64,000 nucleotides of DNA from positions 1 through 64,000 of IMG/VR virus record IMGVR_UViG_3300031578_000005; one strand, written 5' to 3'. Made by a program: the position numbers and the translations under genes. The notes under the pieces are model-generated. The model was not told the DNA's origin. It did not search any database and worked only from the letters and a program-made list of their open reading frames with translations. Below, one piece after another: positions 46,786 to 62,968 of this stretch. The number at the start of each line of letters is the position of its first letter. The stretch's first letter is position 1. This DNA comes from a virus.

Positions 46786-47922
46786 ATGAAACTAATCAGG
46801 TCAACTAAATGTAGTCTGAAGTTCGCTACTGCGAAGAAAAAGAATGATTTACTAACTATCTTGAGTGAATACTCAAAGGTGGTTAATATCTTCATTGACT
46901 ATTTCTGGTTGAATTCTGATAAAGCAACAAAAGGAGAACTTCTTAAACCCGTTGTGGATTTACCACAAGACTCATGGTTGTCGGCTCGACTGAGAAAAGT
47001 TGCAGCAAGAGAAGCAATCGACATGATTAATGCCAGTAAGCAACGATGGAAAGAGAAAGCCGTTAAGCCATTACACAAAGGTCAGAGGATGTATGTTAGT
47101 TGTACCATTGCTGACCTTGTATCAACCAAAAACAATGGTTATAAAACCGAAGACAGCAGACTTTTTGATGCTTGGTTACACATAGCCAGTGTTGGTAATA
47201 AGATGATAATGGACTTGCCGATAAAATACCATAAGCACTTCAACAAATACAATAACATTGGTAGGAGACTGAATTCATATATCATTACCAAGAACTATGT
47301 GCAATTCAGTTTCGAGATAATTACCGAGACAAAGAAGGAAGGTAAACATTGTATCGGTATTGATACAGGTATAAACGCATTGGCAAGTCTTAATAATGGT
47401 AATCAGTATGGTAAGGACATCAAAGGTTGTATCGAGAGAGTTAAAAGATGCAAGCAGAAGTCCAATGGTTATTATGTAGCCAAGAGAGCATTGAAACAAA
47501 GGATTGATGAAACAGCAAAGGAAATATTAGTTAAAGAAACCCCAGATTTAATTGTTGTAGAGCAACTAAAGAAAATGGGATTTAAAAGTAAAGCCAAACG
47601 CTTGTTGGCTAAAAATATCAGGCGTTCTATCGGAACTTGGAATTGGAAGTATTGGTTGAAAAGGTTAGAAGCACAATGCGAGATTAACCGTGTTAGTTTT
47701 CGCAGTGTAGCACCTTATTACACCAGTACAACCTGTCCAATATGTGGTCATTCCGATAGGGGAAATCGACTCGGAGAAGTGTTCTTGTGTCTCAGTTGTG
47801 GTCACGGAGACAATGCAGATATAAATGCGGGTAAGAACATTTTGAATCGATTTCTCACGGGACAATACGGTGCTCGTTACAAGGAAATAAAGGATGTGCA
47901 AGTTTGTGCAGATTTATTTTAA
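46786..47922 (+). CDS. tnpB: TnpB RNA-guided nuclease
   Basis: IGIDTG (RuvC-I), VVEQL (RuvC-II), CPICG/CLSCG zinc finger, NADINAGKNI (RuvC-III). Confidence 0.93.
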   Translation: MKLIRSTKCSLKFATAKKKNDLLTILSEYSKVVNIFIDYFWLNSDKATKGELLKPVVDLPQDSWLSARLRKVAAREAIDMINASKQRWKEKAVKPLHKGQRMYVSCTIADLVSTKNNGYKTEDSRLFDAWLHIASVGNKMIMDLPIKYHKHFNKYNNIGRRLNSYIITKNYVQFSFEIITETKKEGKHCIGIDTGINALASLNNGNQYGKDIKGCIERVKRCKQKSNGYYVAKRALKQRIDETAKEILVKETPDLIVVEQLKKMGFKSKAKRLLAKNIRRSIGTWNWKYWLKRLEAQCEINRVSFRSVAPYYTSTTCPICGHSDRGNRLGEVFLCLSCGHGDNADINAGKNILNRFLTGQYGARYKEIKDVQVCADLF

Positions 47923-48011
47923 CGGTGGTGAAAGTTCATTAAATAGAATTTCAGGCATGAATGAAAATGTCATAAGAATAATCAATGAGGAAATATTAAA
48001 ATTTATTTATT

Positions 48012-48215
48012 ATGAGTAAACTAACCGAAATATATGATGGGTGGAAAAATTTAACGTTTCCAAATCCAAACATCGAAAAACTCGCAAAAACAAGAATTGG
48101 GATTTGTGTCGATTGTGACAAATTAACAAGGAATAATACTTGTAAACTTTGTGGATGTTATATGCCAGCCAAAGTTCGCTCAAAACAAAGTAAATGTAAT
48201 TTAAATAAGTGGTGA
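48012..48215 (+). CDS. Small Cys-rich protein
   Basis: RIGICVDC...CKLCGCYMPAKVR....C...KW. Confidence 0.75.
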   Translation: MSKLTEIYDGWKNLTFPNPNIEKLAKTRIGICVDCDKLTRNNTCKLCGCYMPAKVRSKQSKCNLNKW

Positions 48216-48312
48216 TAGCTTATTAAGTTGAATAATAAGTACCTCTCGTTTCTTATCAATTATTTTACAAATTTTTTTTAATAATTCTTTTTTATTGTTC
48301 ATTATTAATTTG

Positions 48313-48927
48313 TTAGCAATATGGAATATTCTGAATATTATCTTTCATTTCAGGTGTTCTAATATCTAGATTGGTATGATTACTAATATAATCAGCGATA
48401 TACTCTCTAATAAAGAGTACTTTTATCTTATTTGGCGCAATCCTGAATGCTTTAAAATCAATTTCATCACCGTTTGTCGTATTTAGTGTAACATTAATAT
48501 CACCCCAATCAAAACTATTAAACCATTCATCATTTGTTTGTTGTGTATAGCTATCAGTACTGATATTATCTGATTCTTCTTTACCAATACTAATGTTATC
48601 ACTGTAAAAATCTAAATCAAACACAATTGGTTCCTTTTCTTGATCATATGAATATTCTATATTTAAAAAATATCTAATCGTTAATGTTGAAGTATCTTCA
48701 GGGGAATTCTCCCAATCGCCACCAATTGTGGATTCGGTTACATCGATTTTTATTTTATTTTGTTTATTTAATAATGAATCACATATGAATTGTTTCTGGA
48801 AATCTTCATTATTTAGTATATCAACAGATTCTTTTTCTTTCTGATACTTATCGTTATTTAAAAAATCAAAATCAGAAATTTCTTCATTAATAATCCTTAT
48901 AAAGTCCTTTTTTTGCATTGTACTCAA
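48313..48927 (-). CDS. Hypothetical protein with IRIINEEI leader
   Basis: ORF, late motif upstream. Confidence 0.7.
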   Translation of the reverse strand: MSTMQKKDFIRIINEEISDFDFLNNDKYQKEKESVDILNNEDFQKQFICDSLLNKQNKIKIDVTESTIGGDWENSPEDTSTLTIRYFLNIEYSYDQEKEPIVFDLDFYSDNISIGKEESDNISTDSYTQQTNDEWFNSFDWGDINVTLNTTNGDEIDFKAFRIAPNKIKVLFIREYIADYISNHTNLDIRTPEMKDNIQNIPYC

Positions 48928-49123
48928 TTTTAAATAAATACTGTTTATCTAATATAAATTTATGTTTTTTAATAAATTTTTTGTGATAATATTAATGCAT
49001 AGAGTATTTATTGGTATAGAATCATCGCTTAATATTGACATTAAGCTAAGTCTGAAAAAAGTCAGGAATGATTTTAAAAATTTATCGCCCGACAGTGGTT
49101 ATGTAAATTTTTAATACTTGACA

Positions 49124-49155
49124 AAAATGCATCAATACCAATGGTGCATTTTTTA
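49124..49155 (+). terminator. Intrinsic terminator
   Basis: aaaaatgcatca-atacca-atggtgcattttt. Confidence 0.65.
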
Positions 49156-49188
49156 TGTGCAATTGGTATTTATATTAAAAATTAATTA

Positions 49189-49468
49189 ATGTCCAAAAAC
49201 AATAAAAATAGATTATTGGAAATAATGAAGCTAGTTAATCCTTCATTTATTACCGAAGATTTTAATGACAAGCCATTACCAACGAGCTGTGAAAAATTCA
49301 TCAGCAGTACAATACTCAAATTCACGTATAGATACTCCAGTTGAGTTCGAAGACGCATTTAAAGTATGGTTTAGCTCAACGGGTTTTCATCCAGAAAAAA
49401 GTAATTTAACCATATCACAAGCACAGGTATTTGTAAAAAAAGTCATGCAAGAATTGGGATATAAATAA
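49189..49468 (+). pseudogene. Frameshifted late gene with MSKNNKNRLLEIMK leader
   Basis: ATG 49189 follows GTATTTATA; C-terminus is in the 49265..49468 frame. Confidence 0.55.
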
Positions 49469-49494
49469 TTATTTTAAAAATTATTTGCAGTTAT

Positions 49495-49526
49495 TGTAAC
49501 ATTTACTATCTTTGCTACGTATTTAT
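49495..49526 (+). promoter_or_regulatory. Putative promoter of tRNA operon 1 (TGTAAC-N17-CGTATTTA)
   Basis: Near-identical to 51500-51530; motif recurs at least 9 times. Confidence 0.7.
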
Positions 49527-49745
49527 AAAAAGGAGTATAAATTCCATCCATTGTTTTTACGTGAATGGAATGTAAGCGGCAAATGCTAATCCTGATTGAG
49601 AATATACTAAAGTAAGGAATAATCATATTGTCGGGTTCAGGGATTGAATCCTACATTAAGCAAAAACGGGATGAGGCGTTGCCATTAGGTGAGTCTATGA
49701 CCCCCGAAGCCCAACCCGTCAGTTTTGCTGTGGGTGGTAGTTCAC
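49527..49745 (+). mobile_element. Non-autonomous IS200/IS605-type remnant (omegaRNA/right end only)
   Basis: Ends gaagcccaaccc...gggtggtagTTCAC; TTTAT immediately 5'. Confidence 0.65.
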
Positions 49746-49797
49746 AAAATGCAAGCCTATTATTTAGGCAGTTAATTAAATTGAAGAATTAGAAATT

Positions 49798-49872
49798 ATG
49801 AAAAATTTTACACATACTCAGCCCCAACCGCAACAACATCCACAAGAAGTTGAATGGGGAAAATATGTTTAA
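49798..49872 (+). CDS. Leader peptide 1 MKNFTHTQPQPQQHPQEVEWGKYV
   Basis: 10 of 11 consecutive codons are Pro/Gln/His; precedes terminator and Pro/His/Gln tRNAs. Confidence 0.85.
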   Translation: MKNFTHTQPQPQQHPQEVEWGKYV

Positions 49873-49901
49873 AAATTTTAAGAATATTTTAAAATGAACA
49901 T

Positions 49902-49931
49902 AGACCCCATTCGAAAGAGTGGGGTTTTTTT
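49902..49931 (+). terminator. Attenuator terminator 1
   Basis: accccattc-gaaa-gagtggggt plus T run. Confidence 0.85.
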
Positions 49932-49984
49932 GTAACAAAAAATTTGATATTACGTATAGTTGTTCTTTGAAATATAATTTAAAA

Positions 49985-50058
49985 CTGGGAGTGGGAAAAT
50001 TGGTTAATCCGCTTGCCTTGGACGCAAGAGACTGCTGAATCGTACTCAGCCTCCCAGA
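49985..50058 (+). tRNA. tRNA-Pro(TGG)
   Basis: Cloverleaf; cttgc-cTTGGac-gcaag; atypical T-loop atcgtac. Confidence 0.88.
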
Positions 50059-50067
50059 CAATTTTAT

Positions 50068-50156
50068 CGAGTAGTAGCTCTGTAGCTGGTAGCAGTCCCG
50101 TCTTGGAAACGGGTGGAATATAAAATCCCTCGCAGGTTCGAACCCTGCCTATTCGA
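50068..50156 (+). tRNA. tRNA-Pro(TGG) with long variable arm
   Basis: cgagtag/ctattcg; cccgt-ctTGGaa-acggg; extra arm gga-atataaaa-tcc. Confidence 0.8.
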
Positions 50157-50214
50157 CTGGTAGTCAAAGAGTTATATTGATTTCTACTTTGACTGTAAAA
50201 AAATCCATATATAT

Positions 50215-50290
50215 GGTGGTATTAGTGTAGTGGTTAGCACGATACTCTGTGAAAGTATTAGCACCAGTTCAAATCTGGTATATCACCCCA
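50215..50290 (+). tRNA. tRNA-His(GTG)
   Basis: G-1:C73, atact-ctGTGaa-agtat, encoded CCA. Confidence 0.92.
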
Positions 50291-50295
50291 AATAT

Positions 50296-50369
50296 TACTC
50301 TCTGGTGTAATTGGTTAACATTTTGGAATTTGACTCCAAAGATTGTAGGTTCAAGTCCTACGAGAGTAA
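50296..50369 (+). tRNA. tRNA-Gln(TTG)
   Basis: tactctc/gagagta; ttgga-atTTGac-tccaa. Confidence 0.88.
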
Positions 50370-50375
50370 CAATAT

Positions 50376-50458
50376 TGTCCTCTGGCAGAATGGCTATTGC
50401 ATCGCCCTTTGAAGGCGACACCCGAAACGGTTTACAGGTTCGAATCCTGTGAGGACTA
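50376..50458 (+). tRNA. tRNA-Gln(TTG) with long variable arm
   Basis: tcgcc-ctTTGaa-ggcga; extra arm ccg-aaa-cgg. Confidence 0.8.
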
Positions 50459-50466
50459 CACTATAT

Positions 50467-50537
50467 TACCAAATGGTGTAATGGTAACACCCAATCCTCT
50501 GAAGGTTGTGTTCTTGGTTCGAATCCAAGTTTGGTTA
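50467..50537 (+). tRNA. tRNA-Gln(CTG)
   Basis: caatc-ctCTGaa-ggttg. Confidence 0.85.
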
Positions 50538-50628
50538 CTAAGATAGTTGAATCAATTATTATGAATGCATAAGAATTATTAATGGGCTTAGAACTTGGAA
50601 TTAAATATTAATTCATTATATTTGCAAA

Positions 50629-50856
50629 ATGGAAGCAGAAGAATTAATAAAAAAAATAAAGAAGTTTGTCGAAGAACTTGATAATAACTTCGAATCAATA
50701 CTTATTCCAACTAAGTATGATCCTAATGATATACAGTATGATGTTTCTTTTATTATGATGGAGAAAGTCGAAGATGATAGAAGTACGCCAAGATTCATTG
50801 TAAATGTAACTGATTTAAATAAAGATGATAATGTCAAAACTAAGAGTGGGAAATAA
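50629..50856 (+). CDS. Hypothetical protein
   Basis: ORF overlapping a TAnnTTTG motif upstream. Confidence 0.55.
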   Translation: MEAEELIKKIKKFVEELDNNFESILIPTKYDPNDIQYDVSFIMMEKVEDDRSTPRFIVNVTDLNKDDNVKTKSGK

Positions 50857-50969
50857 AGAAAACGCTAAAATAAATGGTGAATGGGGCGACCATGTAAGAA
50901 AATGGGGCAAATTTTTCACAGCTAAATTACGTAGAAATATTGATAAACAAATAATTAAAAAAGAGTACG

Positions 50970-51377
50970 ATGAATTATAATTTATTCTTAGATGATATAA
51001 GAGTTCCTAGAAATGTATACTCATATATACATAATCCCATATACGCTATGGATGAGTGGATAATTGTTCGAAACTATGATGATTTTGTAAAATACATTGA
51101 AAAAAATGGTATGCCCGAAAAAATTTCTTTTGATCATGATTTATCAGCAGAACATTATGACCCGGACTTATATGGTAGTGAAACATATGATGAAGTATAT
51201 GATCAATTTGAAGAAAAAACCGGATATGATTGTGCTAAATGGCTCATTAATTACTGTATTGAAAATAAATTAGATTTGCCCAATGAAATCCTAATTCACT
51301 CGATGAATATTACCGGTGGGTTGAACATCAAATCATTATTTGATACTTACAATAAATCATTAAAAGTAAATTCGTGA
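50970..51377 (+). CDS. Cyclic-phosphate-processing receiver-like domain protein
   Basis: LFLDDIR.P, ISFDHDL, KTGYDCAKWL, HSMN. Confidence 0.75.
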   Translation: MNYNLFLDDIRVPRNVYSYIHNPIYAMDEWIIVRNYDDFVKYIEKNGMPEKISFDHDLSAEHYDPDLYGSETYDEVYDQFEEKTGYDCAKWLINYCIENKLDLPNEILIHSMNITGGLNIKSLFDTYNKSLKVNS

Positions 51378-51499
51378 TTTGCAAATTGCAAATTATTATG
51401 TGTTGAGATTATAAGTACTAAAATTTATTACTAGAACATATTAATAATCAACAACATATAAATTAAACTAAAAATAATTTAAAAAAAGTTTGCAGATAT

Positions 51500-51530
51500 T
51501 GTAACATTTACTAACTTTGTTGCGTATTTA
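51500..51530 (+). promoter_or_regulatory. Putative promoter of tRNA operon 2 (TGTAAC-N17-CGTATTTA)
   Basis: Recurrent motif 46 nt upstream of leader 2. Confidence 0.7.
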
Positions 51531-51576
51531 GATAAAACGAATTAAGAATTTTTGAATAATTAAATAAATAATACAA

Positions 51577-51666
51577 ATGAAAAATTTACTCGACATATTG
51601 ATGGTAGTCTTAGCAGTTGACCTATTATGGGCAGATGCAGAGGATAAACTATGTTTAGTCGGGTAA
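51577..51666 (+). CDS. Leader peptide 2 MKNLLDILMVVLAVDLLWADAEDKLCLVG
   Basis: 18 of codons 4-23 are Leu/Val/Asp/Ala/Glu/Trp, matching the downstream tRNAs. Confidence 0.82.
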   Translation: MKNLLDILMVVLAVDLLWADAEDKLCLVG

Positions 51667-51693
51667 TGAAAAATTACACTCCTTTCTTAATTG

Positions 51694-51727
51694 AAAAACC
51701 CGACAACTAAAAATGGTCGGGTTTTTT
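51694..51727 (+). terminator. Attenuator terminator 2
   Basis: aaaaacccgac-loop-gtcgggtttttt. Confidence 0.85.
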
Positions 51728-51808
51728 GTTTTTATAGAAAGGATGTTCTTTGACATGTTGGAAATTTAAAAATAATTGGAGTGGGTTTGTAATCCACTCC
51801 TAAATAAC

Positions 51809-51878
51809 GACTGCGTAGTATAATGGCTAGTATTTCTCACTGTCTATGAGAGGGCGGGGTTCGAATCCCACGTAGTCG
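51809..51878 (+). tRNA. tRNA-Asp(GTC)
   Basis: tctca-ctGTCta-tgaga, G73. Confidence 0.85.
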
Positions 51879-51882
51879 GCAT

Positions 51883-51956
51883 GGTGCGTTTGGCAAGTTG
51901 GTTAAGCCGTAAGACCTTCAATTTTACATTCATGGGTTCGAGTCCCATACGCACTA
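51883..51956 (+). tRNA. tRNA-Glu(TTC)
   Basis: taaga-ccTTCaa-tttta (C33). Confidence 0.8.
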
Positions 51957-51962
51957 CGATAT

Positions 51963-52034
51963 GTTCGGTTCGAATAATGGTCAGTTCACAAAATTTTCAA
52001 TTTTGTTATAGCGGTTCAAATCCGCTACCGAGTA
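51963..52034 (+). tRNA. tRNA-Glu(TTC)
   Basis: caaaa-ttTTCaa-ttttg. Confidence 0.85.
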
Positions 52035-52173
52035 CATTTAAAAACATACGGTTTAGGACCGTTATGGTTTCGACCATAGAAGAGTGACGATGTTCGCTAC
52101 TACGTCACTCTTTAATTTAAAAATCTTGACAATACCGCTATTATTTAATACATTTGCAATAAATCTTGAAATC

Positions 52174-52665
52174 ATGGCATTGGATGTTAATAGTGAAAAG
52201 GGTAAAGAAAGCGTTCGTCAAGAAGCTGAAATGTTAAAAGGTGTTGAAAAATGCTGGAATTATAATGTCGTTGTGACAAATAAAAATAAAGAGGCAATTT
52301 GTGATGGTTTTTTAGTAAAAAAAAGAGAAGTTGTTGCAATATTTGAAAGTAAATGTAGGGACCTATCATATAATGAATTGGAAAATTATGGTTCATGGCT
52401 TATTACATATGATAAAATAAAAACCTGTAAATATTTATCTGAATTATTGAAAGTACCATTTATTGGTTTCTTGTATCTAATCAAAGACAATATCACACTT
52501 TTTTGGAAAATCACTGATTCAGATGGAAAGTACTTATTTGAATTTAATCATAATAAAACATTAACGCAAGAAACAATTAATGGTGGCAAAATATACAGAG
52601 ATAATGCATATTTGCCATTTTCAGAAGCTAAATTTGTTCACAAAGAAGAAATTATGTTTCCATAA
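52174..52665 (+). CDS. PD-(D/E)XK-family nuclease-like protein
   Basis: CDGFL...FESKCR. Confidence 0.6.
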   Translation: MALDVNSEKGKESVRQEAEMLKGVEKCWNYNVVVTNKNKEAICDGFLVKKREVVAIFESKCRDLSYNELENYGSWLITYDKIKTCKYLSELLKVPFIGFLYLIKDNITLFWKITDSDGKYLFEFNHNKTLTQETINGGKIYRDNAYLPFSEAKFVHKEEIMFP

Positions 52666-52715
52666 TGAATGATATTACAAACACAATTAATTAATTTGTT
52701 TATAATATAGTACAT

Positions 52716-52786
52716 GGGGAATTGGCGTAAAGGTAGCGTATTTGGCTTACATCCAATTGGCAATAGTTCGATTCTATTATTCCCTA
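52716..52786 (+). tRNA. tRNA-Val(TAC)
   Basis: ggggaat/attccct; ttgg-ctTACat-ccaa. Confidence 0.82.
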
Positions 52787-52939
52787 CTTCGTCTGGAAAA
52801 TCCAGAAATAAATTAGCAGTTATCGGCTTATTCATCGATAAACATTCGTTATCGGTTATTAAGACGATAAAGCTATCTGGAAAATTCAGATAATTTCACA
52901 AAATCATTGTTTTATTTAAAATAAACTCAGTATATTTAT

Positions 52940-53089
52940 AACTTGTCAGTATAAGACATTAAAACCTCGTTAGGGACTAACGAGTACACGAGTGGAGTAA
53001 AAGTAAGACTTCTAGCTTTTCGGAGCAGTAAGCAAATTGCCGTGAAACTCGAAGCTCAATCCATCACGAAGTGTGGATGGGTAGTTCAC
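52940..53089 (+). mobile_element. Second non-autonomous IS200/IS605-type remnant (omegaRNA/right end only)
   Basis: Ends gaagctcaatcc...ggatgggtagTTCAC; TTTAT immediately 5'. Confidence 0.65.
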
Positions 53090-53173
53090 ATAGGTATCGT
53101 CTAAAGGTAAGACGCTTCCCGTCCGAGGGAAGAGATGGGAACTGCAGATAAGGTTCAATTCCTCCTGCCTATG
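53090..53173 (+). tRNA. Atypical tRNA-like gene (8-nt anticodon loop, identity undetermined)
   Basis: ataggta/tgcctat acceptor, gtct/agac D-stem, cttcc-cgtccgag-ggaag, ggttcaattcc. Confidence 0.55.
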
Positions 53174-53178
53174 CAAAT

Positions 53179-53262
53179 GCTCTTATGGTGCAACTGGAGT
53201 GAGACACAGCAGTCTTAGAAACTGTTTCTTAAATGGTGTGGGTTCGAGTCCCACTAAGAGCA
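53179..53262 (+). tRNA. tRNA-Leu(TAG)
   Basis: gcagt-ctTAGaa-actgt. Confidence 0.85.
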
Positions 53263-53939
53263 CAATTTACTTCTAACTTATTATTGATTACATTAATAAC
53301 AATATTTAAATATTTTATTGAGGTTTGTTCTTTGAAATACTTTTGTTGGGAGACATCGATTATACATAATTCAATTCCTTGTTCTAAACAGGCTTGAAAC
53401 TTACGTTGGTCATTATTTTGGATTTGACCTAATTTATCTTCACCAAATATTGGTTCGTAATGGAAAATACCATTAAGTTCAAATGCTAATTTAAGTGAGG
53501 GAATGTAAATATCTAATTCTGAATTGATGGTTGTTTTATTATTGAATAATATTTCTAAATTTCGGTATTGTTTGGTTAATTCAGTTTCAAGATATTGCTC
53601 AAGTTTCGACCTACGATTACCATTTGTTTTGTGTTTATTATTATATGTGGCAGCACATGAACGTGAACAAAAGTGATTGGTAGATTTTTTTTTATCTGAT
53701 AATTGAATCGTAATATTGTTGCCACAATTAGTACATTGAATTATTTCTTTTTTACCTTGTGACGATTGATAACAATTTAATGAACAATATTTACCACTAA
53801 ATTTAGCACTTTTACATGGGATTTGTTTTATTTTACGTTTTGTTAAATAAAAAATATTTGCACAGCCATAACATTTGCATGGTAATTTATCTAATGATTT
53901 TGATGTTAAAAACTCTTGTTCTGTATATAATTTAATCAT
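53229..53939 (-). CDS. Zinc-finger PD-(D/E)XK putative homing endonuclease
   Basis: Several CxxC/FCS.SC motifs, ELDIYIP..KLAFELNG..HY; antisense within the tRNA cluster. Confidence 0.75.
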   Translation of the reverse strand: MIKLYTEQEFLTSKSLDKLPCKCYGCANIFYLTKRKIKQIPCKSAKFSGKYCSLNCYQSSQGKKEIIQCTNCGNNITIQLSDKKKSTNHFCSRSCAATYNNKHKTNGNRRSKLEQYLETELTKQYRNLEILFNNKTTINSELDIYIPSLKLAFELNGIFHYEPIFGEDKLGQIQNNDQRKFQACLEQGIELCIIDVSQQKYFKEQTSIKYLNIVINVINNKLEVNCALSGTRTHTI

Positions 53940-54088
53940 ATAATGATGTTTATAATAAATACTTATAATATTCATTTTCTGTACGTATCATCAGTACAAA
54001 ATTTATCGAAATAAAAAACTGCTTATTCTGGGGGATGATAGTAAGTTCCAGACACTAAGGTAGGGGTGATAGTCTACATAGGCGTAAT

Positions 54089-54162
54089 GGGGTCGTAGCT
54101 CAATTGGCGAGAGCACCGCACTTGCAATGCGGAGGTTAGGGAATCGTGCTCCCTCGACTCCA
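54089..54162 (+). tRNA. tRNA-Ala(TGC)
   Basis: G3:U70, ccgca-ctTGCaa-tgcgg; atypical T-loop. Confidence 0.9.
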
Positions 54163-54216
54163 CAAATGACTGTAAATCAACAATTTACAGTCATTATTTA
54201 AAGTAATCATTTACAT

Positions 54217-54303
54217 GGCTCAGTGGTGGAAATGGCAAGACACGCAGGACTTAAAATCCTGTCCACCGAAAGGTGGGTGTGGGTTCGACTCCCATCTGAG
54301 CTA
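54217..54303 (+). tRNA. tRNA-Leu(TAA)
   Basis: cagga-ctTAAaa-tcctg, long variable arm. Confidence 0.92.
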
Positions 54304-54392
54304 CAATTACCGGATATTGCCAGATAAAATTTTAGTTTATTGATTATCAAATATTTAATAAATTATATTTTACCAGATATTGCCGGATACAT

Positions 54393-54466
54393 GGCTCTAT
54401 AACCCAAATGGTAGAGGTGGTGTCTTCAAACGGCATTTGTTTTCAGTTCGAATCTGAATAGAGCTA
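54393..54466 (+). tRNA. tRNA-Leu(CAA) lacking the long variable arm
   Basis: ggctcta/tagagct; gtgtc-ttCAAac-ggcat. Confidence 0.75.
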
Positions 54467-54494
54467 CAACAGTATTTATAATAAAACTAAGGTT

Positions 54495-54980
54495 ATGAAT
54501 TATAAATTATTTTCTTACTTAATGATGATACTGGTGTTTGTATCATATGTTGTATTCATCTGGTCAAGATATGGCATACAAAAATCAATATCTGCCAGTT
54601 ATTATGTATTGCCTGAAAAAATCAATGTGTTATTCACATTATTTTGTTGGGGATTTGCATTTCCTGCGATAATTGTTGCACAAACGCCATTAATGTTTTT
54701 GGCAGGTTCTGCAATTGTTTTTGTTGGTGCTGCCGCAAGATTTAAAGAAAAACTAACAAAATCTGTTCATATGATAAGTGCTACAATTGGTGTTATTTTA
54801 AGTCAGGCATCAATATTTTTTGATTATCACCTGTGGCATCTTAATGCAATATTTGTATTATCGTCATTAATTATATTAGGTGTGCTATATTTTAAACACA
54901 TCGATAAATATATATGGTGGATTGAAATTTTTGCATTTTCAACAATATGTATTGCATTAGGTATTAATTCAATATTTTAA
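54495..54980 (+). CDS. Multi-pass membrane protein
   Basis: Five to six hydrophobic segments; SISASYY motif. Confidence 0.75.
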   Translation: MNYKLFSYLMMILVFVSYVVFIWSRYGIQKSISASYYVLPEKINVLFTLFCWGFAFPAIIVAQTPLMFLAGSAIVFVGAAARFKEKLTKSVHMISATIGVILSQASIFFDYHLWHLNAIFVLSSLIILGVLYFKHIDKYIWWIEIFAFSTICIALGINSIF

Positions 54981-54985
54981 AATAC

Positions 54986-55056
54986 ACGTCTTTGTTGTAA
55001 TGGTAGCATAAATCTCTCCAAAAGATTTAGTACTTGTTCGAATCGAGTAAGACGTG
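54986..55056 (+). tRNA. tRNA-Trp(CCA)
   Basis: aatct-ctCCAaa-agatt, G73. Confidence 0.85.
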
Positions 55057-55118
55057 CAAAATAAAGTTTATTGAAACAATTACTTTTGCTGTTCGAGATT
55101 GTTTTTATGTTAAAATAA

Positions 55119-55475
55119 ATGATTATGAATAGCAAAACAGATAATTTTTCAGATATTGAAATAATTAAAATACTTTCAGAGTGTAAATCATTTAGAGAGG
55201 TTTTAATTAAAATCGGTTATAGTAGTAATGGAAGCGGTGGTTATAGTCTACTCAAACAACAATTAAAAAAACGTGGCATTCAAATACCTAAATATCATTA
55301 TTATGGTGATGGAAAAAAACGTAGCTTATATACATTAGATGAAATTTTAGTTGAGAATTCAACATATACTGCAAGAGGTCGATTAAAAAAACGTTTGGTT
55401 AAAGAAGGTATGTTAGAATATAAATGTGTTTCTGATAACACAATACGTAAATGGCTTAAATTATATGAAAAATAA
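55119..55475 (+). pseudogene. Internally deleted HNH-endonuclease-like gene
   Basis: L.EILVENS.Y....LK.RL..EG..EYKC joined directly to VSDNTIRKW; HNH core missing. Confidence 0.6.
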
Positions 55476-55489
55476 ATGTGCTAATACAT

Positions 55490-55560
55490 GCGTCTATCGT
55501 TCAACGGTAAGACAACTGCTTCCAAACCAGTTAATGAGGGTTCGATTCGTTCCCGGTGTG
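55490..55560 (+). tRNA. Degenerate tRNA-Trp(CCA), probable pseudogene
   Basis: ttCCAaa loop; mismatched acceptor and T stems. Confidence 0.5.
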
Positions 55561-55689
55561 CTAAATCGAATTTAAATTTTAGTGGAATAATTTCAGCTTT
55601 GATTTTCATTTGTAACAAAACCAATTTTTTTTCGTATATATTACCAATAATATTTGTTAATTAACACAAAATGATTTAAATTTGCTATT

Positions 55690-56406
55690 ATGTATATAAT
55701 CTCAAAAAAGAAAGATTTTTATGATGGTGTTGTCTCGACAATGGGTATTGATAAGTCTATTGTTTTTAATCGAGATGATGTTGAAATTGGAGAAAATGAA
55801 TATCCAAAATTATTTAGCCACTCCAAAGGTTATTGGAATTCATTAATGAATGATACCATTAATAATTTACATCACCACAATATAAAAAAAGAGCATAAAG
55901 GCGATTATCAAGCATATAACTATTTTGTTATTGGATTTTGTGGAAAACTTTATTTGGGTATGAAGTTATATACAAAAAGTCAGAACATCTTTGATGGTTT
56001 AACAACAAAAATAATTTATGATATTGACTTAATTACTGAAATTATTGAAAACACCGGCTATCGAAGCAATTTAATTGATGAAATTAATTATGTTCGTAAT
56101 TATAATGCATTAGACATTTTTAGAAAATTTAATACACCTGTATTTGTATATGATAATGACTATAACCGAATCTCGATCAATGATAGAAATGAGCATAAGT
56201 TCATTATTAACGCCAATATATACGAATATGAATTTTATAAAATCTTTGATAGTTTTCATGCATTCCAAGAAATTCAAATGTTTATTAGCGGTGTATTGGG
56301 TAGTGGTGAAAAGGAAATAATCAAAATTACAGATAAAGATAAAATCGCTCAACATGGCTTTGACTATAAATATAGTTTTAGAAAAGATAAAGAAAATAAA
56401 AAATAA
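55690..56406 (+). CDS. Hypothetical protein
   Basis: KDFYD...IGFCGK.Y...FQEIQMFI..VL...KI..HGFD...SFR. Confidence 0.75.
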   Translation: MYIISKKKDFYDGVVSTMGIDKSIVFNRDDVEIGENEYPKLFSHSKGYWNSLMNDTINNLHHHNIKKEHKGDYQAYNYFVIGFCGKLYLGMKLYTKSQNIFDGLTTKIIYDIDLITEIIENTGYRSNLIDEINYVRNYNALDIFRKFNTPVFVYDNDYNRISINDRNEHKFIINANIYEYEFYKIFDSFHAFQEIQMFISGVLGSGEKEIIKITDKDKIAQHGFDYKYSFRKDKENKK

Positions 56407-56413
56407 GTTCTTT

Positions 56414-56776
56414 GGGGGTGACCGGATTTGACAGCATGTTAGACTGGTAATGTAAGCAGGTAGTAGTTGAATCAGGCTACTTTAAAAAGGTTCAAAGTTA
56501 TAAACGCAAACAATTCCGAGGACATTATGTCCATTCCGACTTCACACTTAATTGTGGGAAGAAGTGCATTTGCAGAGAAAACTGAACTCGCATTTGCTGC
56601 ATAGGAAATAACTAATACAGTTAAGAACTCCTGAGTTGAAAGGATAAATTTAATACAGTTTCATGTTTGAACTGGTAGAATCAATCAATACTTTGTCGGT
56701 TTAGAGAAATCGAATAAACCTGTAGAAAACGTATTAATCACATGTGTGGACGTGGGTTCGAATCCCACTACCTCCA
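56414..56776 (+). ncRNA. ssrA: tmRNA
   Basis: GGGGGTGAccGGaTTtGAC 5' end; GACGTGGGTTCGAATCCCACTACCTCCA 3' end; tag ORF 56506-56604 ending AFAA*. Confidence 0.93.
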
Positions 56777-56796
56777 CTTAAGTAATTATAAATAAG

Positions 56797-57231
56797 ATGA
56801 TTATGAGTACAGCAAGAAGTAGATTTATTGAAGCGATTGATGTTTGGATTAAGTCTGACGACGGAGAAGCCTACCTTAAAGACGAACGAATTCGACATGA
56901 AATTCAAATTGGAAGATATAAACGTTTTGATGACTGGTTGAAATGCAATGACTTTGATCTGCTAATATATCGACTAATTTTAAAGCATGACATAAGCTAT
57001 CGTGAAAAATATTATCATAATGGATTCGAACCCGGACCAAATAATTTATTACAATTCATTTTTGACTATATCGACAATAAATTCGAACCAATTGCCGTAG
57101 CTGAACTTGATTGCGAATTTTCAAATAATATCTGGTTATTTAAAGGATATTATTTTCAATGTATTTATGGTCAAGGAGCAATATTTAAAATATATAATAA
57201 AGCAGATATGCGAGAAATAATATCAATATAG
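56797..57231 (+). CDS. Hypothetical protein
   Basis: ORF. Confidence 0.65.
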   Translation: MIMSTARSRFIEAIDVWIKSDDGEAYLKDERIRHEIQIGRYKRFDDWLKCNDFDLLIYRLILKHDISYREKYYHNGFEPGPNNLLQFIFDYIDNKFEPIAVAELDCEFSNNIWLFKGYYFQCIYGQGAIFKIYNKADMREIISI

Positions 57232-57383
57232 ATGAAAAAAATCAAGCAACAAAAAAACGATGACTGTAATTGTGGTAAGTCAGTTAAAATAACAGAAAGA
57301 AAAAAATTAATATATAAGAACAATAAGAAATGAAAGAAAATTTTAAAGTCTTGTAATGCAACTCAAATGTTGCTACAAGAATA

Positions 57384-57713
57384 ATGAAAGTAAAAAAAAT
57401 TGTAGATTCAACAACAAATCGTTATGTATTCAATCGTGCGTATAAAGAATATTTAGAACGCAAAGGTAAAATTCGTTGCTCTTATTGCCAATTTCATAAA
57501 AATGAAAATGATAATAGAAAATGGTATGGTGGAATAAAACATAATGAATTTTATGATGATATGTTGACATGTTATGGTGGTGTTAAAGAAACTCATACTA
57601 GATATCCTAATTGGAAATTAATTTCTAAAAATAAGAAACAGTGGATGAATAAAGGAATTAAAATCACTGAAAAATATGATTTAAAACGTATTTATATTGA
57701 AATAAAATTTTGA
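57384..57713 (+). CDS. Hypothetical protein
   Basis: CSYC..H..EN motif. Confidence 0.65.
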   Translation: MKVKKIVDSTTNRYVFNRAYKEYLERKGKIRCSYCQFHKNENDNRKWYGGIKHNEFYDDMLTCYGGVKETHTRYPNWKLISKNKKQWMNKGIKITEKYDLKRIYIEIKF

Positions 57714-57724
57714 GGTAATCACAT

Positions 57725-57798
57725 GGCGACATCGTTCAATGATAGGACAGCTCTCTCATAAGGAGTTGATACGAGTTCAATTCTCGTTATCCCAACCA
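57725..57798 (+). tRNA. tRNA(CAT), Met or Ile2, weak acceptor stem
   Basis: gctct-ctCATaa-ggagt, encoded CCA, three acceptor mismatches. Confidence 0.6.
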
Positions 57799-57845
57799 TT
57801 GGTCATTTTTGTACTAAGATAGTATTTATATTTAAAAGTACATTT

Positions 57846-58499
57846 ATGGCAAGAAAGGAAAAAACATATCATTTTATTTACAAAACGACCAATCTATTGA
57901 ATGACAAATATTATTATGGAATGCATTCCACTTATGATTTGAATGATGGATATTTAGGTAGTGGTAAAAGGTTGAGATATTCAATAAATAAACACGGAAA
58001 AGAAAATCATGTTAGAGAAATTATTGAATTTTTACCAAATTATAATGAATTGATTAAAAGAGAAGAAGAAATTGTAAATTTAAATGAAATTGCAAAAGAA
58101 AATTGTTTAAATTTAAGAGTTGGAGGTTCTGGTGGTTTGAATGGATTATCTAAGGAATCGTTAATGAAGATTAGAATTGCATCGTCTAATTATATGAAAA
58201 GTTTGTGGAAAAATGGTGGTGAAGAATATCGAAATAAATTCAGTAAAATTAACACAATAAATCTAACAAATGCACATAAAAACAATAAAATAAAATATGA
58301 TAATTTTAAAAACAGAAAACATCGAAATGAAACGATTGAATTAATGAAAAAAAAGAAAATTGGTTTTGGACGTGGAAGCGATAATTCTCAATATAATACC
58401 TGTTGGGTTACAAGAAACGGAATAAATAAAAAAATAAAAAAAGAGAAACTGTCCGAATTCATTAAATTGGGATGGATTAATGGAAGAAAATTTAAATAA
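57846..58499 (+). CDS. GIY-YIG (Seg-like) homing endonuclease
   Basis: FIYKTTN...YYGMH...YLGSG. Confidence 0.85.
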   Translation: MARKEKTYHFIYKTTNLLNDKYYYGMHSTYDLNDGYLGSGKRLRYSINKHGKENHVREIIEFLPNYNELIKREEEIVNLNEIAKENCLNLRVGGSGGLNGLSKESLMKIRIASSNYMKSLWKNGGEEYRNKFSKINTINLTNAHKNNKIKYDNFKNRKHRNETIELMKKKKIGFGRGSDNSQYNTCWVTRNGINKKIKKEKLSEFIKLGWINGRKFK

Positions 58500-58522
58500 T
58501 CCTAAGTTGGCTCTGGTTTAAT

Positions 58523-58960
58523 TTAAAATTTAACAATACAATTTTTATTTTTAAAATCAAAACTTAGACCATTAATATATAATGAACTGCCCTTTTGAAG
58601 ATTTGCGTCATTATCGATAATAAATTTCCATTCGAAGTCATTGATATTTTTTGGTGTTTCTTGTTTTTGTTCATCATTTTGTTTATCAAATAATTTTAAT
58701 AAAAACGTGCCTTCGACGCTTTCAACATCAACAATAAAATTTTCAACCCCCATGTCATTTAACCAGAAAGAAATTCCCCAATTAACAACAATATCACTTT
58801 CAGTAACTTCACTATCAAATTCATTTGTGAATGCACTGTAATTGTAAAAAGATGAATTAGTTAGCCTTTCTTTAAAATGAAATCTATCATCATTCATTAT
58901 ATATGATTCATTGAGAAATTTCTGTATTTCCTCAAAAATTATAGTTTCACTTAACTTCAT
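58523..58960 (-). CDS. Hypothetical protein with IIFEEIQKFLNE leader
   Basis: ORF, late motif upstream. Confidence 0.7.
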   Translation of the reverse strand: MKLSETIIFEEIQKFLNESYIMNDDRFHFKERLTNSSFYNYSAFTNEFDSEVTESDIVVNWGISFWLNDMGVENFIVDVESVEGTFLLKLFDKQNDEQKQETPKNINDFEWKFIIDNDANLQKGSSLYINGLSFDFKNKNCIVKF

Positions 58961-59065
58961 AACAAATATATTTTAAATATAAATACTATTAATTCAATTA
59001 AAATTAATATATTTGTTTTCTGTAACAAATATAAAAACTTTACGTATATAATTTAAACATTAAAA

Positions 59066-60163
59066 ATGAAATTACTTGAAAAAATTAATTGGGAAGTCCT
59101 AGATACATATATTGAAAATGGATTGATTATGTCCAATAAGCATCCTGAATACGATATTTGGATTTTAAATTACACACCAAAAACACAATCAAAAAAGTTA
59201 TGGGATGTATATACTATATCATGTCGTGGATTAATTATCGATGTTGATGGTAATATTTTAGCCCGACCTTTTCAAAAATTTAAAAACTTTGAGGAACATG
59301 ATTCTTCAGAAATTGATATGTCATTACCTTTTGAAATATTTGAAAAGCGTGATGGATCATTAATTATATTATTTTACTACGAACTCAGAATGGAATGGAT
59401 TGTTGCATCAAGAGGTTCATTTGCTTCAGAACAATCAATTGAAGCTAAAAAAATATTAGAGTCAAAAGAAAATGCTTTTAAATTCTTAGACATAAAAAAT
59501 ACGTATTTATATGAAGTTCATTATGGCGAAAATAGAATTGTGGTAGATTATGGTGACTTAAGAGACGTGGTGTTATTAACTGTTATTAATTCAAAAACCG
59601 GCTATGAATTATCTTATGATGCAATGAATGAACAATATTCAAATTATTTTGCAATTGTCAAAAGGTTTGATATAAATATTAATTCACTGGATGATTTAAA
59701 AAAACTTGAAGAAGAAAATAAAGAAGGTTTTGTTGTTAAATTTTCGAACAATTTTAGAGTTAAAGTAAAATTTAGTGAATACATTAGATTGCATGGAATA
59801 TTAACAAATGTTTCAAACATAATTGTCTGGGAACATTTGAAGAATAACTATGATTTCGACACATTATTAGACAGAGTTCCTGACGAATTTTATTCATGGC
59901 TTAACAAAACCATTGATAAATTAAAAGGTAATTTCAATGAAATTGAAAGATTATCATTAAAAGAATTTATTAGAATTTACTATATTAATGAGATATCTAC
60001 TCGCAGAGAATTTGCAATGGAAGCAAAGAAGTGTAAATATCGATCGATCTTATTTAAATTGTATGATAAAAATCAATACGATGAAATTATCTGGAAAATG
60101 ATTAGACCAGTTTATAGTAAGCCGTTTTCTCGTCATTTTGAAAATAGTTTGGAAATTAATTAG
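59066..60163 (+). CDS. RNA ligase 1 (T4 Rnl1-like)
   Basis: CRGLI, RPFQKF.N, EKRDGSL (KxDG), SRGSF, EGFVV, RVKVK. Confidence 0.9.
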   Translation: MKLLEKINWEVLDTYIENGLIMSNKHPEYDIWILNYTPKTQSKKLWDVYTISCRGLIIDVDGNILARPFQKFKNFEEHDSSEIDMSLPFEIFEKRDGSLIILFYYELRMEWIVASRGSFASEQSIEAKKILESKENAFKFLDIKNTYLYEVHYGENRIVVDYGDLRDVVLLTVINSKTGYELSYDAMNEQYSNYFAIVKRFDININSLDDLKKLEEENKEGFVVKFSNNFRVKVKFSEYIRLHGILTNVSNIIVWEHLKNNYDFDTLLDRVPDEFYSWLNKTIDKLKGNFNEIERLSLKEFIRIYYINEISTRREFAMEAKKCKYRSILFKLYDKNQYDEIIWKMIRPVYSKPFSRHFENSLEIN

Positions 60164-60204
60164 TCCATTATACATTGTCATAGTATTTATATTAAAATAA
60201 TATT

Positions 60205-60999
60205 ATGGCATATGTATATAAACATCTCAGAAAAGATAATAATGATGTATTCTATATTGGCATTGGATTATCTAAAAATTTTAAACGAGCATATTCTAAA
60301 TGTAATAGAAATAACTATTGGAAAAATATTGTGAATAAAGTAGATTATATTATTGAAATTATTCATACAAATATTACATGGGAAGAAGCATGTAATATTG
60401 AAATAAAATTAATAAAAGAATATGGTCGAAAAGATTTGAATGAGGGTGAATTGGTTAATATGACTAACGGTGGAGATGGTATTGTTGGGTTAATTCAGAC
60501 TGATGAACATAGAAGAAAAAATAGTGAAGCAAATAAAGGAAGACCTAAAAGTACCAAACATATTGAAAAATTCAAAAATAGAATTCAGTCTGATGAAACC
60601 AAACGAAAAATTAGTTTAAAGAATAAAGGAAGAATTTGTACTGATGAAACCAAACGAAAAATTAGTGATAAATTAAAAAATAAGATGATTGGTGATAAAA
60701 ATCCGTTCTTTGGTAAAGAACATACTAATAAAGCTAAAGAACAAATAAGTAATTCCTTGAAAGGACGCAAATTGTCCGAAACAACAAAAAATAAAATATC
60801 TGAATCAAATAAAGGAAAAACTCGCATAATTTCCGAAAAATCAAAAATTAAAATGAGTATTTCTGCAAAACATAGAAACATTAGACCACCATCAAGAAAA
60901 GGAACGTGTTGGGTAACAAAAAATGGTGTAACTAAATCAATTAAAATTAATGATTTAGATTTTTACATTTTTGATGGTTGGGTAAGAGGACGTAAGTAA
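60205..60999 (+). CDS. GIY-YIG homing endonuclease with NUMOD3 repeats
   Basis: YVYKH...FYIGIG, N.T.GGDG, DETKRKIS repeats. Confidence 0.85.
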   Translation: MAYVYKHLRKDNNDVFYIGIGLSKNFKRAYSKCNRNNYWKNIVNKVDYIIEIIHTNITWEEACNIEIKLIKEYGRKDLNEGELVNMTNGGDGIVGLIQTDEHRRKNSEANKGRPKSTKHIEKFKNRIQSDETKRKISLKNKGRICTDETKRKISDKLKNKMIGDKNPFFGKEHTNKAKEQISNSLKGRKLSETTKNKISESNKGKTRIISEKSKIKMSISAKHRNIRPPSRKGTCWVTKNGVTKSIKINDLDFYIFDGWVRGRK

Positions 61000-61082
61000 T
61001 TATATAATTTTCTTTACTATTTATTAGTATGGATATTATTAAAATAATAAAAGAAGAAATTGAAACACTGATGTAGTATTGG

Positions 61083-61177
61083 TTATAACGGTTGGGTGTA
61101 TGAGAAGGTTTGCTTAGATGAACTTTCAAATTATCCACAACTGCTGATAGCAAACTTTCTTATACACCTTGTTATAC
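61083..61177 (-). repeat. attC-like site D
   Basis: TTATAAC...ggtgtatgagaaggtttgct / agcaaactttcttatacacc...GTTATAC. Confidence 0.8.
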
Positions 61178-61292
61178 ACAGTACGGTTTAATTAGGTAGA
61201 AACTAAATTGAAAACGAAATAAAAACTTTTTAAAAATGTGTGATGGAAAATTTAATTCTGAATATTTATATATAAAATAAAAACGAAATACT

Positions 61293-61685
61293 ATGAGTAA
61301 AGAAATTAGACAAATGATTGATAAAGTTAAGAACTTTAAGCAATTTGTGAATGAACAAAGAGTTCCATATAACGAATTACAAAATATGGTTAAAGATTTC
61401 TTGAATAAAGAAATTCAATTTACAATGGATGATATTCAAAAATATGTTGTTGGTAACATTGAAAGTATTGATTATCACACAAATGGTAGAGGGTTTGAAG
61501 TTAGTGTTGGTAATTATAAAAGTGGTGACGGTGTTAAAGATGGTAGGGGGTCATTATCAATATTTCCAGATGAAAATAAAATTATCTTTTCACATAATGA
61601 TTTTAAACCACACCCAGTTAGTGGTTTGAATGAATTTACGAATAATTTTTTTCAATTTATTAGTAAAATAGATTTCAAAAAATAG
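61293..61685 (+). CDS. Cassette-borne late protein with MSKEIRQMIDKVKNFKQFVNE leader
   Basis: Between sites D and E, with its own TATTTATA motif. Confidence 0.72.
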   Translation: MSKEIRQMIDKVKNFKQFVNEQRVPYNELQNMVKDFLNKEIQFTMDDIQKYVVGNIESIDYHTNGRGFEVSVGNYKSGDGVKDGRGSLSIFPDENKIIFSHNDFKPHPVSGLNEFTNNFFQFISKIDFKK

Positions 61686-61775
61686 TGAATATTTTTTGAA
61701 TGTAAAAATGTGTGGTGGAAATCTTTAAAAAGTTTTTTACATAGAACTTAATTTGAAACACTAATATAGTATTGT

Positions 61776-61866
61776 GTATAACGTTGAGTGTATGAAACGT
61801 AGCATGCACAACACTTAATATAAACCACTAACCTTGATTGGCTATGTTTTATACACGTTGTTATAA
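61776..61866 (-). repeat. attC-like site E
   Basis: GTATAAC...gtgtatgaaacgtagc / gctatgttttatacac...GTTATAA; tgtgtataac is complementary to gttatacaca of site D. Confidence 0.8.
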
Positions 61867-61976
61867 CCAGTACGGTAAAATTACCACAAATGTTAGATTG
61901 AAACACCGAACAAAAACTTTTAAAAATGTGTGACGGTAATATAATTACACTACTATTTATATTAAAATATTATTAT

Positions 61977-62299
61977 ATGGAAAATGAAATGAGAAAACTG
62001 ATTGACCAAGTTAAGAATTTTGGTAAATCATTAAACGAAAATGTTGGTAATACAACATACGCAATATATTTAGGAACTGATATTATTTATAATCATTTAT
62101 CTAATGAAAGATTAAAATCAGTACTCTATTCATTGGTGAAGATTTAGGTGAAGATTTAGGTGATTACATTATTGTTCAAAACGGAACAAACCACACCAAA
62201 CCAGCAGATGAATTAGGATGGGATTTGTCAAACGTAAAACCTTTTGATAACATTAATTCACTACGTACCAAAATAGATAATATTGCCAACAGAATTTAA
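61977..62299 (+). pseudogene. Frameshifted cassette gene with MENEMRKLIDQVKNFGKSLNE leader
   Basis: Stop at 62147 near the ggtgaagattta duplication; another frame continues to about 62299. Confidence 0.55.
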
Positions 62300-62374
62300 T
62301 TTTTTATTGTGGATTGGAGATTTTTAAAAGTTTTTGTAACAAAATGCTAATTAGAACGTATAATGTAGTATTGG

Positions 62375-62440
62375 TTATAACTATTATATATAAAACATAA
62401 CACTTAACTAATTGATTGTAAACATTAAAAACAAGTCAAC
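62375..62440. repeat. Array-terminal (attI-like) site, divergent copy 3
   Basis: tggttataac is complementary to gttataacca of site E, then TAACTA..ATATAAAAC resembling 745 and 32464. Confidence 0.5.
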
Positions 62441-62503
62441 TTTAGGAAAGTATAAAAAATTTTTTAAAGTTAAACGTAGTATTTAAAAATAATTTAAAAT
62501 TTT

Positions 62504-62533
62504 TGTAACATTTATTAGTTTATTACGTATTTA
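62504..62533 (+). promoter_or_regulatory. Putative promoter of tRNA operon 3 (TGTAAC-N16-CGTATTTA)
   Basis: Recurrent motif 32 nt upstream of leader 3. Confidence 0.7.
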
Positions 62534-62565
62534 TGATTAACTTTGTAGAATTAAAATTTGAAATA

Positions 62566-62667
62566 ATGAAAAAAGGTAACACATATTATAAAAAGTATTA
62601 TTATAAACATTATGTTTGTAAGACTGGCAATACTGTGTTGTTATCTGAAAAGGAAACTGATAATTAA
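62566..62667 (+). CDS. Leader peptide 3 MKKGNTYYKKYYYKHYVCKTGNTVLLSEKETDN
   Basis: 9 of 10 consecutive codons are Tyr/Lys; precedes terminator and Tyr/Lys tRNAs. Confidence 0.85.
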   Translation: MKKGNTYYKKYYYKHYVCKTGNTVLLSEKETDN

Positions 62668-62684
62668 AGATAAACGATACTAAC

Positions 62685-62723
62685 AAAAAACCCGGTCTTA
62701 ATTTAATAAGACCGGGTTTTTTT
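62685..62723 (+). terminator. Attenuator terminator 3
   Basis: aaaaaacccggtctta-atttaa-taagaccgggttttttt. Confidence 0.88.
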
Positions 62724-62743
62724 ATGCTTATTTTCATTGTAAT

Positions 62744-62824
62744 TGGGTGGTAGGTAAGTGGTTAAAACGGATTGACTGTAAATCAATTGCTTCGGCTTCG
62801 GGGGTTCGAATCCCTCCCGCCCAA
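62744..62824 (+). tRNA. tRNA-Tyr(GTA)
   Basis: attga-ctGTAaa-tcaat, variable arm gc-ttcg-gc. Confidence 0.88.
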
Positions 62825-62831
62825 CAATAAT

Positions 62832-62915
62832 GCATCCATGCCAGAGAGGTTATGGACTGGACTTTTAATCCAGACTCCGAACGGAGTAACGTAGATTCGA
62901 GTTCTACTGGATGCA
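62832..62915 (+). tRNA. tRNA-Lys(TTT) with long variable arm
   Basis: ctgga-ctTTTaa-tccag; extra arm actcc-gaac-ggagt. Confidence 0.8.
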
Positions 62916-62968
62916 CAGTGGGGACTGTTTATAATTTTCATAGTACATGAAAGCGTAGAAAATTAAAT

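Follow-up and report, generated by a model that had tools for sequence, protein, structure and literature searches.

A likely leader-peptide attenuator upstream of a tRNA gene block in a T4-like phage

Results

A candidate attenuator precedes six phage tRNA genes

We found a compact candidate regulatory unit, called unit 1 here, directly upstream of six phage tRNA genes, and consider it likely to be a ribosome-mediated (leader-peptide) transcription attenuator that regulates these genes. The unit lies in a stretch of 64,000 nucleotides (the window), which covers the first half of a virus record of 128,513 bp with 29% G+C. This reading draws on the anatomy of unit 1, the statistical excess of particular codons in its leader, its conservation and the behaviour of its folds. 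Feature coordinates are collected in Table 1.

In the proposed mechanism, transcripts would start at the promoter at about 49484-49524 and carry a 24-codon leader. With an ample supply of Pro-, Gln- and His-tRNAs, the ribosome would reach the stop codon and cover region 2, whereupon the terminator would form and transcription would stop at about 49931. A shortage of any one of them in charged form would instead stall the ribosome on the control codons, where it would cover region 1 and leave region 2 free to pair with the emerging 5' arm of the terminator, and the polymerase would continue into the block of six tRNA genes. The tRNAs made in this way would ease the stall and close a negative feedback loop. 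A promoter-like motif behind the terminator probably contributes tRNAs independently of the gate, possibly at a different stage of infection. In this scheme we infer that the leader is translated and that polymerase and ribosome are coupled in a host that probably belongs to the Bacteroidota; we likewise infer the use and timing of the promoters and the biological trigger.

Table 1. Features of the four leader units and their surroundings (window positions unless marked as genome)
Feature	Position	Strand	Description
Promoter region feeding leader 1	49484-49524	+	Two overlapping two-block motifs (promoter-like)
Insert between promoter and leader 1	49525-49797	+	273 nt, strongly folded, MFE -65.6 kcal/mol
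Unit 1 leader ORF	49798-49872	+	24 codons plus stop
Unit 1 control codons	49813-49845	+	2 His, 5 Gln and 3 Pro within 11 codons
Region 1 (protector, anti-antiterminator)	49822-49826	+	5 nt within the control codons, pairs with 49855-49859
Region 2 (antiterminator 5' strand)	49852-49859	+	8-nt exact complement of 49905-49912
Intrinsic terminator	49903-49931	+	5' arm 49903-49912 (region 3), 3' arm 49917-49926 (region 4), T-run to 49931
Second promoter-like motif	49931-49960	+	Phage-wide type, better -10-like end, abuts terminator T-run
tRNA block 1	49985-50538	+	Pro, Pro, His, Gln, Gln, Gln; ARAGORN, all six confirmed by Rfam
Second Pro tRNA of block 1	50068-50157	+	90 nt, long extra arm
Second Gln tRNA of block 1	50376-50459	+	84 nt, long extra arm
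Unit 2 leader	51577-51666 (leader and terminator 51577-51727)		21/28 residues in Asp, Glu, Val, Leu, Ala, Trp, the set of its tRNA block
Unit 3 leader	62566-62667 (leader and terminator 62566-62722)		13/32 residues Tyr or Lys; block Tyr, Lys, Lys, Tyr
Unit 4 leader	genome 72020-72145 (leader and terminator 72020-72200), outside window		35/40 residues in the set of its block
tRNA-like genes missed by ARAGORN default, found by Rfam	53090-53174, 57726-57794, 63127-63195

The virus record is that of a T4-like phage and encodes a T4-type major capsid protein and large terminase; its nearest named relatives, Flavobacterium phage immuto and Rhodothermus phage RM378, are distant. ARAGORN reports 32 tRNA genes and a tmRNA in the genome at its default setting and 37 tRNA genes at a relaxed threshold. 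Three more tRNA-like genes in the window come from Rfam: a Met one, a short Tyr-like one and one whose anticodon loop is unreadable. A T4 Rnl1-like RNA ligase (window 59066-60163), whose best match among GenBank phages is 36% identical, is encoded inside the tRNA island. The tmRNA (window 56414-56777), which has an unusually long tag, lies within the island too. Two ORFs between tRNA blocks (window 57846-58499 and 60205-60999) have N-termini that by eye resemble GIY-YIG homing endonucleases and are putatively assigned as such. Compared with GenBank phages, the DNA from 49400 to 52100 gave only three short tRNA-like matches.

The leader is rich in codons read by the downstream tRNAs

The original prediction placed a leader with Pro, Gln and His control codons ahead of tRNA genes for the same three amino acids, and both parts hold. 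Pro, Gln and His make up 10 of the 23 residues after the start, against a background of 7.2% for the three together in the phage's long ORFs (binomial P 1.8e-6). No other of the 631 short ATG frames on the two genome strands (20-45 aa) reaches such a share. The control codons begin at the first His codon (49813) and end at the last Gln codon (49843-49845), and, by the established wobble rules, all of them can be read by anticodons of the downstream block, where ARAGORN assigns to the six tRNA genes the anticodons named beforehand. Unit 1 therefore has the short ORF rich in regulatory codons that characterizes a leader-peptide attenuator, and this ORF is probably translated.

Long extra arms in bacterial tRNAs are normally limited to those for Leu, Ser and Tyr. 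In this phage, tRNAs of 84-90 nt with long extra arms carry Pro, Gln, Lys, Cys and Thr anticodons; two lie in block 1 (Table 1), one at window 62832-62916, and two at genome 72342-72431 and 76834-76919. In the relatives described below, such arms occur on Glu, Val, Lys, Trp, Cys and Asn tRNAs too.

Modelled folds of the leader RNA depend on ribosome position

An intrinsic terminator stands between the leader and the tRNA genes. A terminator scan recovered the predicted hairpin and T-run, reporting 49902-49927 with 11 pairs, 5 of them G-C, and a T-run after them; the hairpin energy is -17.2 kcal/mol. The predicted antiterminator strand, region 2, is indeed an exact complement of the terminator 5' arm, and its duplex with 49905-49912 has an energy of -13.4 kcal/mol, a value that none of 300 shuffled leader regions matched. 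The end of region 2 and the stop codon are 10 nt apart, which puts it within the footprint of a ribosome at termination. The proposed protector, region 1, is likewise complementary to part of region 2 as listed and is paired in the MFE structure of the free full-length leader.

We simulated the ribosome as a 30-nt unpairable mask, an assumed footprint size, and moved its A site codon by codon. In full-length MFE folds, the nine codons with the A site at 49810-49834 give the antiterminator (8 pairs) and no terminator, whereas the terminator forms at the other 14 codon positions, with the ribosome at the stop codon and in free RNA. Constrained folding had been suggested as a check on the original prediction, and in these full-length folds the terminator yields to the antiterminator only with a ribosome on the control codons. 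When the modelled transcript stops short of region 4, as in nascent RNA, A sites at 49801-49837 allow region 3 to pair with 49852-49859, and this pairing is gone for A sites from 49846 to the stop codon. With the assumed 30-nt footprint, the switching window of unit 1 leaves out the final three control codons.

Antiterminator and terminator are thus mutually exclusive, and region 2 is masked by a ribosome at the stop codon and freed by one on the control codons, given the assumed 30-nt footprint. The protector overlaps the regulatory codons and is weaker than the antiterminator at equilibrium. Because region 2 prefers region 3 over region 1 in the nascent fold without a ribosome, the protector would have to act kinetically, by forming first. 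Together, the modelled folds support the view that unit 1 would behave like a classical attenuator.

Three sister units share the plan of unit 1

Four units in the genome, unit 1 included, share one plan: a promoter, a short frame starting with Met-Lys, a hairpin with a T-run, and tRNA genes. The composition of each further leader is given in Table 1. The block of unit 4 holds thirteen tRNAs, with the set Cys/Asn/Ile/Ser/Phe/Gly/Thr/Arg, and the four leaders together cover most of the amino-acid alphabet. In the nascent-RNA model, units 2-4 form antiterminators of 7-9 pairs with energies of -12.0 to -13.7 kcal/mol. Their equilibrium folds keep the terminator at most ribosome positions, and for this reason we rely on the nascent-RNA model for these three units. 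The leader regions of units 1-3 each pair best with their own terminator arm, while unit 4 is ambiguous; for unit 1, the energy is -13.4 kcal/mol with its own arm and -5.6 to -7.2 kcal/mol with the other three.

The units are conserved in related phage contigs

Using the RNA ligase as a query, we reached 22 IMG/VR loci with proteins 60-70% identical, all of which have syntenic tRNA islands; both the tmRNA and the RNA ligase are kept in the relatives. A blind script, which looked for a hairpin with a T-run at most 450 nt from a tRNA and a short frame ending just before the hairpin, recovered all four leader types in the ligase loci. In total, 42 distinct units of the four types were gathered from uncultured phage contigs, which share descent and are not independent samples. 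In 31 of the 42 units (type 1, 5/6; type 2, 7/8; type 3, 16/18; type 4, 3/10), no more than 3 of 300 shuffles attain the antiterminator duplex, and several relatives have a weak antiterminator in type 4, to which unit 4 belongs. Where a locus has two or more blocks, every leader (34/34) matches its own block best, a count that reflects conservation rather than 34 independent events because the units share descent. In several units, among them the type-4 unit of locus L006 and the type-1 unit of L016, region 2 and the terminator change jointly. In three type-3 loci, the antiterminator motif is read in another frame, and the peptide tail differs while the Tyr and Lys codons are still in frame, which points to an RNA switch plus codon content and not to a functional peptide.

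For type 1, we assembled ten distinct versions, three through the ligase loci (this window included), three through a 17-nt terminator-junction string and four through leader-DNA similarity in whole records. All ten keep the start codon, the open frame and the Pro/Gln/His content, with counts by eye of 10/23, 9/23, 6/20, 8/23, 10/23, 8/23, 8/23, 9/23, 7/23 and 9/26. A seven-codon core compared between locus L039 and the window shows three synonymous changes and zero non-synonymous ones; in the leader alignments, substitutions are not concentrated at third codon positions. Across the ten units, 95% of the 80 alignment cells of the antiterminator are paired, versus 18-61% with a slid partner, and one pair is changed on both sides, a result reached by 41 of 500 shuffles. 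Within type 1, the antiterminator region is conserved rather than co-varying. In the terminator, 96.7% of 90 cells are paired and three pairs are changed on both sides, which 0 of 500 shuffles equal. All five pairs of the region 1 protector are kept in seven of the ten.

Two cultured Bacteroidota phages, immuto (Flavobacterium) and pT24 (Tenacibaculum), gave 3 and 4 tRNA matches, respectively, and a leader-plus-terminator unit before tRNAs in neither (0/2); among the cultured phages examined, we found no laboratory model for the leader units. In pT24 (L050, LC168164.1, about 191520-191594), ARAGORN reports a tRNA with an amber-reading anticodon.

Gated and ungated promoters may both serve block 1

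The promoter of leader 1 combines a phage-wide motif at 49495-49522 with a Bacteroidota-like -33/-7 pattern at 49484-49514, and the same composite heads unit 2 (51489) and unit 4 (genome 71946). The leader promoters form a sub-class of the phage-wide motif, with a different -10-like end, and they overlap the -33/-7 pattern. The composite was also sought in viral contigs, where it was found in 0 stretches. The phage-wide motif occurs 9 times in the window, versus 0.09 expected, and 49 times in the genome, mostly before small genes at 94-126 kb. About 37 copies lie at genome 94000-126500, all on the + strand and many with a short G+C-rich hairpin in the spacer. The -33/-7 pattern, which we take to be the Bacteroidota promoter consensus, has 11 sites genome-wide versus 7.8 expected and is found at most 140 nt upstream of 29 of the 42 units. 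Since it is not enriched genome-wide, it bears on the host only through its position before leaders. This position, together with the lack of Shine-Dalgarno-like sequences on inspection by eye, suggests a Bacteroidota host.

In the relatives, only about 10-45 nt separate promoter and leader. The distance is 283 nt in this phage, owing to a folded 273-nt insert that is peculiar to it and that might impair or change leader expression. The insert has partial copies in the tRNA island (genome 77355-77413, 77611-77661 and 78068-78113) and no Rfam match at E<=1. An insert-like folded element is also present at about window 52948-53085, and the tRNA genes at 53090 and genome 78132 immediately follow copies or halves of the element.

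The original prediction came with the caveat that a second promoter-like motif begins at 49931, directly after the terminator, and could bypass the attenuator. The caveat is well founded, as the motif is an exact copy of the phage-wide motif and recurs in most type-1 relatives. It follows the terminator in 6/6 type-1 units versus 0/36 units of the other three types, three of those six having been found via a string that contains part of the motif. Among the seven type-1 units found otherwise, the exact motif is present in four, a one-letter variant in one and neither in two. These two, L037 and L040, have a tRNA-Pro starting about 10 and 7 nt, respectively, after the T-run with no promoter between, and thus appear to need read-through of the terminator. 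The gate seems to be the only visible route in some relatives and the ungated route a frequent addition that is present in this phage, which seems to supply the tRNAs of block 1 both through the gate and around it. Because L037 and L040 lack the motif, bypass does not make attenuation pointless.

Alternative readings of unit 1

The second promoter nevertheless allows a reading in which the attenuator of this phage is largely bypassed, with the tRNAs made mainly from the 49931 motif and the leader and terminator left as a relic or as upstream insulation. A motif that copies so enriched a class exactly, has the better -10-like end and recurs behind the terminator in most type-1 relatives could be the main source, and the 273-nt insert parts the leader from its promoter here. 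A relic would be expected to decay, though, and leader, region 2 and terminator are intact and conserved here; besides the two relatives in which tRNA-Pro abuts the terminator without the motif, the three sister units of this genome carry no such motif after their terminators. We judge it unlikely that the unit is bypassed to this extent.

Far less probable in our view are two readings that dispense with the leader as a translated sensor. One holds that the short frames encode functional micro-proteins or arise by chance, that the hairpins are ordinary upstream terminators and that the codon match is coincidental. Coincidence would have to explain why four units each match their own tRNA block, why the region 2 of each copies the 3' arm of its own terminator, and why just one of 631 short frames reaches the composition of unit 1; a functional peptide is hard to square with the type-3 frame change, which keeps the RNA motif and alters the peptide tail. 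Short conserved ORFs can encode peptides, the substitutions lack a third-position bias, and shared descent makes conservation alone weak, but we still give this reading very little credence. The other holds that, with no translation involved, the leader RNA either binds a protein or senses tRNA directly in the manner of a T-box. Firmicutes offer examples of direct tRNA sensing, the regulated genes here are themselves tRNAs, and the upstream insert is a strongly folded RNA. Against this, neither a T-box nor any other leader-type Rfam model matches at E<=1 in 47000-64000, a lone specifier could not serve a leader that spans three amino acids (as many as eight or nine in unit 4), and the start codon and open frame are kept in ten of ten type-1 units; such sensing thus appears highly improbable. 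We accordingly favour ribosome-mediated attenuation through a translated leader.

Discussion

Why phages carry tRNAs is a long-standing question. If unit 1 works as proposed, tRNA supply in these phages would be a regulated, demand-driven function, and leader-peptide attenuation would extend from amino-acid metabolism to the translation apparatus, and to viruses. Which leader opens would then be a simple readout of the tRNAs that are limiting during infection, and the compact, modular leaders could serve as decoding-capacity sensors.

The roles proposed for phage tRNAs include codon compensation and the replacement of tRNAs destroyed by host defences (PMC10264068, PMC11555353). This published work, together with the neighbouring RNA ligase and tmRNA, suggests a counter-defence role, which we put forward as a tentative possibility, more doubtful than the attenuator itself. 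The four leaders might jointly form a decoding-capacity sensor and, with the RNA ligase and tmRNA, a counter-defence: depletion of a tRNA by a host anticodon nuclease, or by the phage's shut-off of its host, would stall ribosomes on the matching leader and switch on just the replacement block. Unit 1 would in that case have both a basal, ungated supply and an emergency, gated one. In full-text literature searches we found no account of tRNA genes under leader-peptide or attenuator control, and the main text of PMC10264068 does not mention promoter, transcription or leader.

The general mechanism of leader-peptide attenuation has been described (PMC1183508). Like the enterobacterial trp, his, phe and leu leader attenuators, unit 1 has a short ORF of regulatory codons, a four-region RNA with protector, antiterminator and intrinsic terminator, and a stop codon whose position lets a ribosome that completes the leader cover region 2. 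Unlike them, it is set in a phage and its regulated genes are tRNAs, not biosynthetic enzymes; the signal would be decoding capacity, and the loop would act on tRNA supply, not amino-acid supply. The curated Rfam models of His, Trp, Thr and Leu leaders and similar ones have no match at E<=1 in 47000-64000. T-boxes share a choice between terminator and antiterminator that is tuned to the state of a specific tRNA, but they bind uncharged tRNA directly and need no translation, unlike the mechanism proposed here, and unit 1, with no Rfam T-box match at E<=1 in 47000-64000, is not assigned to that family.

Multivalent leaders are known, the thr leader for Thr and Ile and the ilv leaders for Ile, Val and Leu. 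These likewise mix codons, so that a shortage of any one opens the gate; in the phage, by contrast, the amino acids that are mixed are exactly those of the tRNAs in the downstream block. The attenuator of the pheST operon, with a Phe-rich leader, controls a cellular synthetase gene. It too governs a component of the translation apparatus and not a biosynthetic pathway, the regulated gene being a synthetase gene in a cell for pheST and tRNA genes in a virus for unit 1. The Bacteroid-trp motif is a leader-peptide attenuator as well. In a table of PMC2864571, it is given as a cis-regulatory leader candidate of Bacteroidetes (RF01692); it precedes cellular tryptophan synthesis genes, in a phylum probably shared with the host of this phage, and the Rfam search of 47000-64000 gave no match to it in the window. 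Unit 1 has all the structural features that define leader-peptide attenuators, and it stands outside the curated leader and T-box families.
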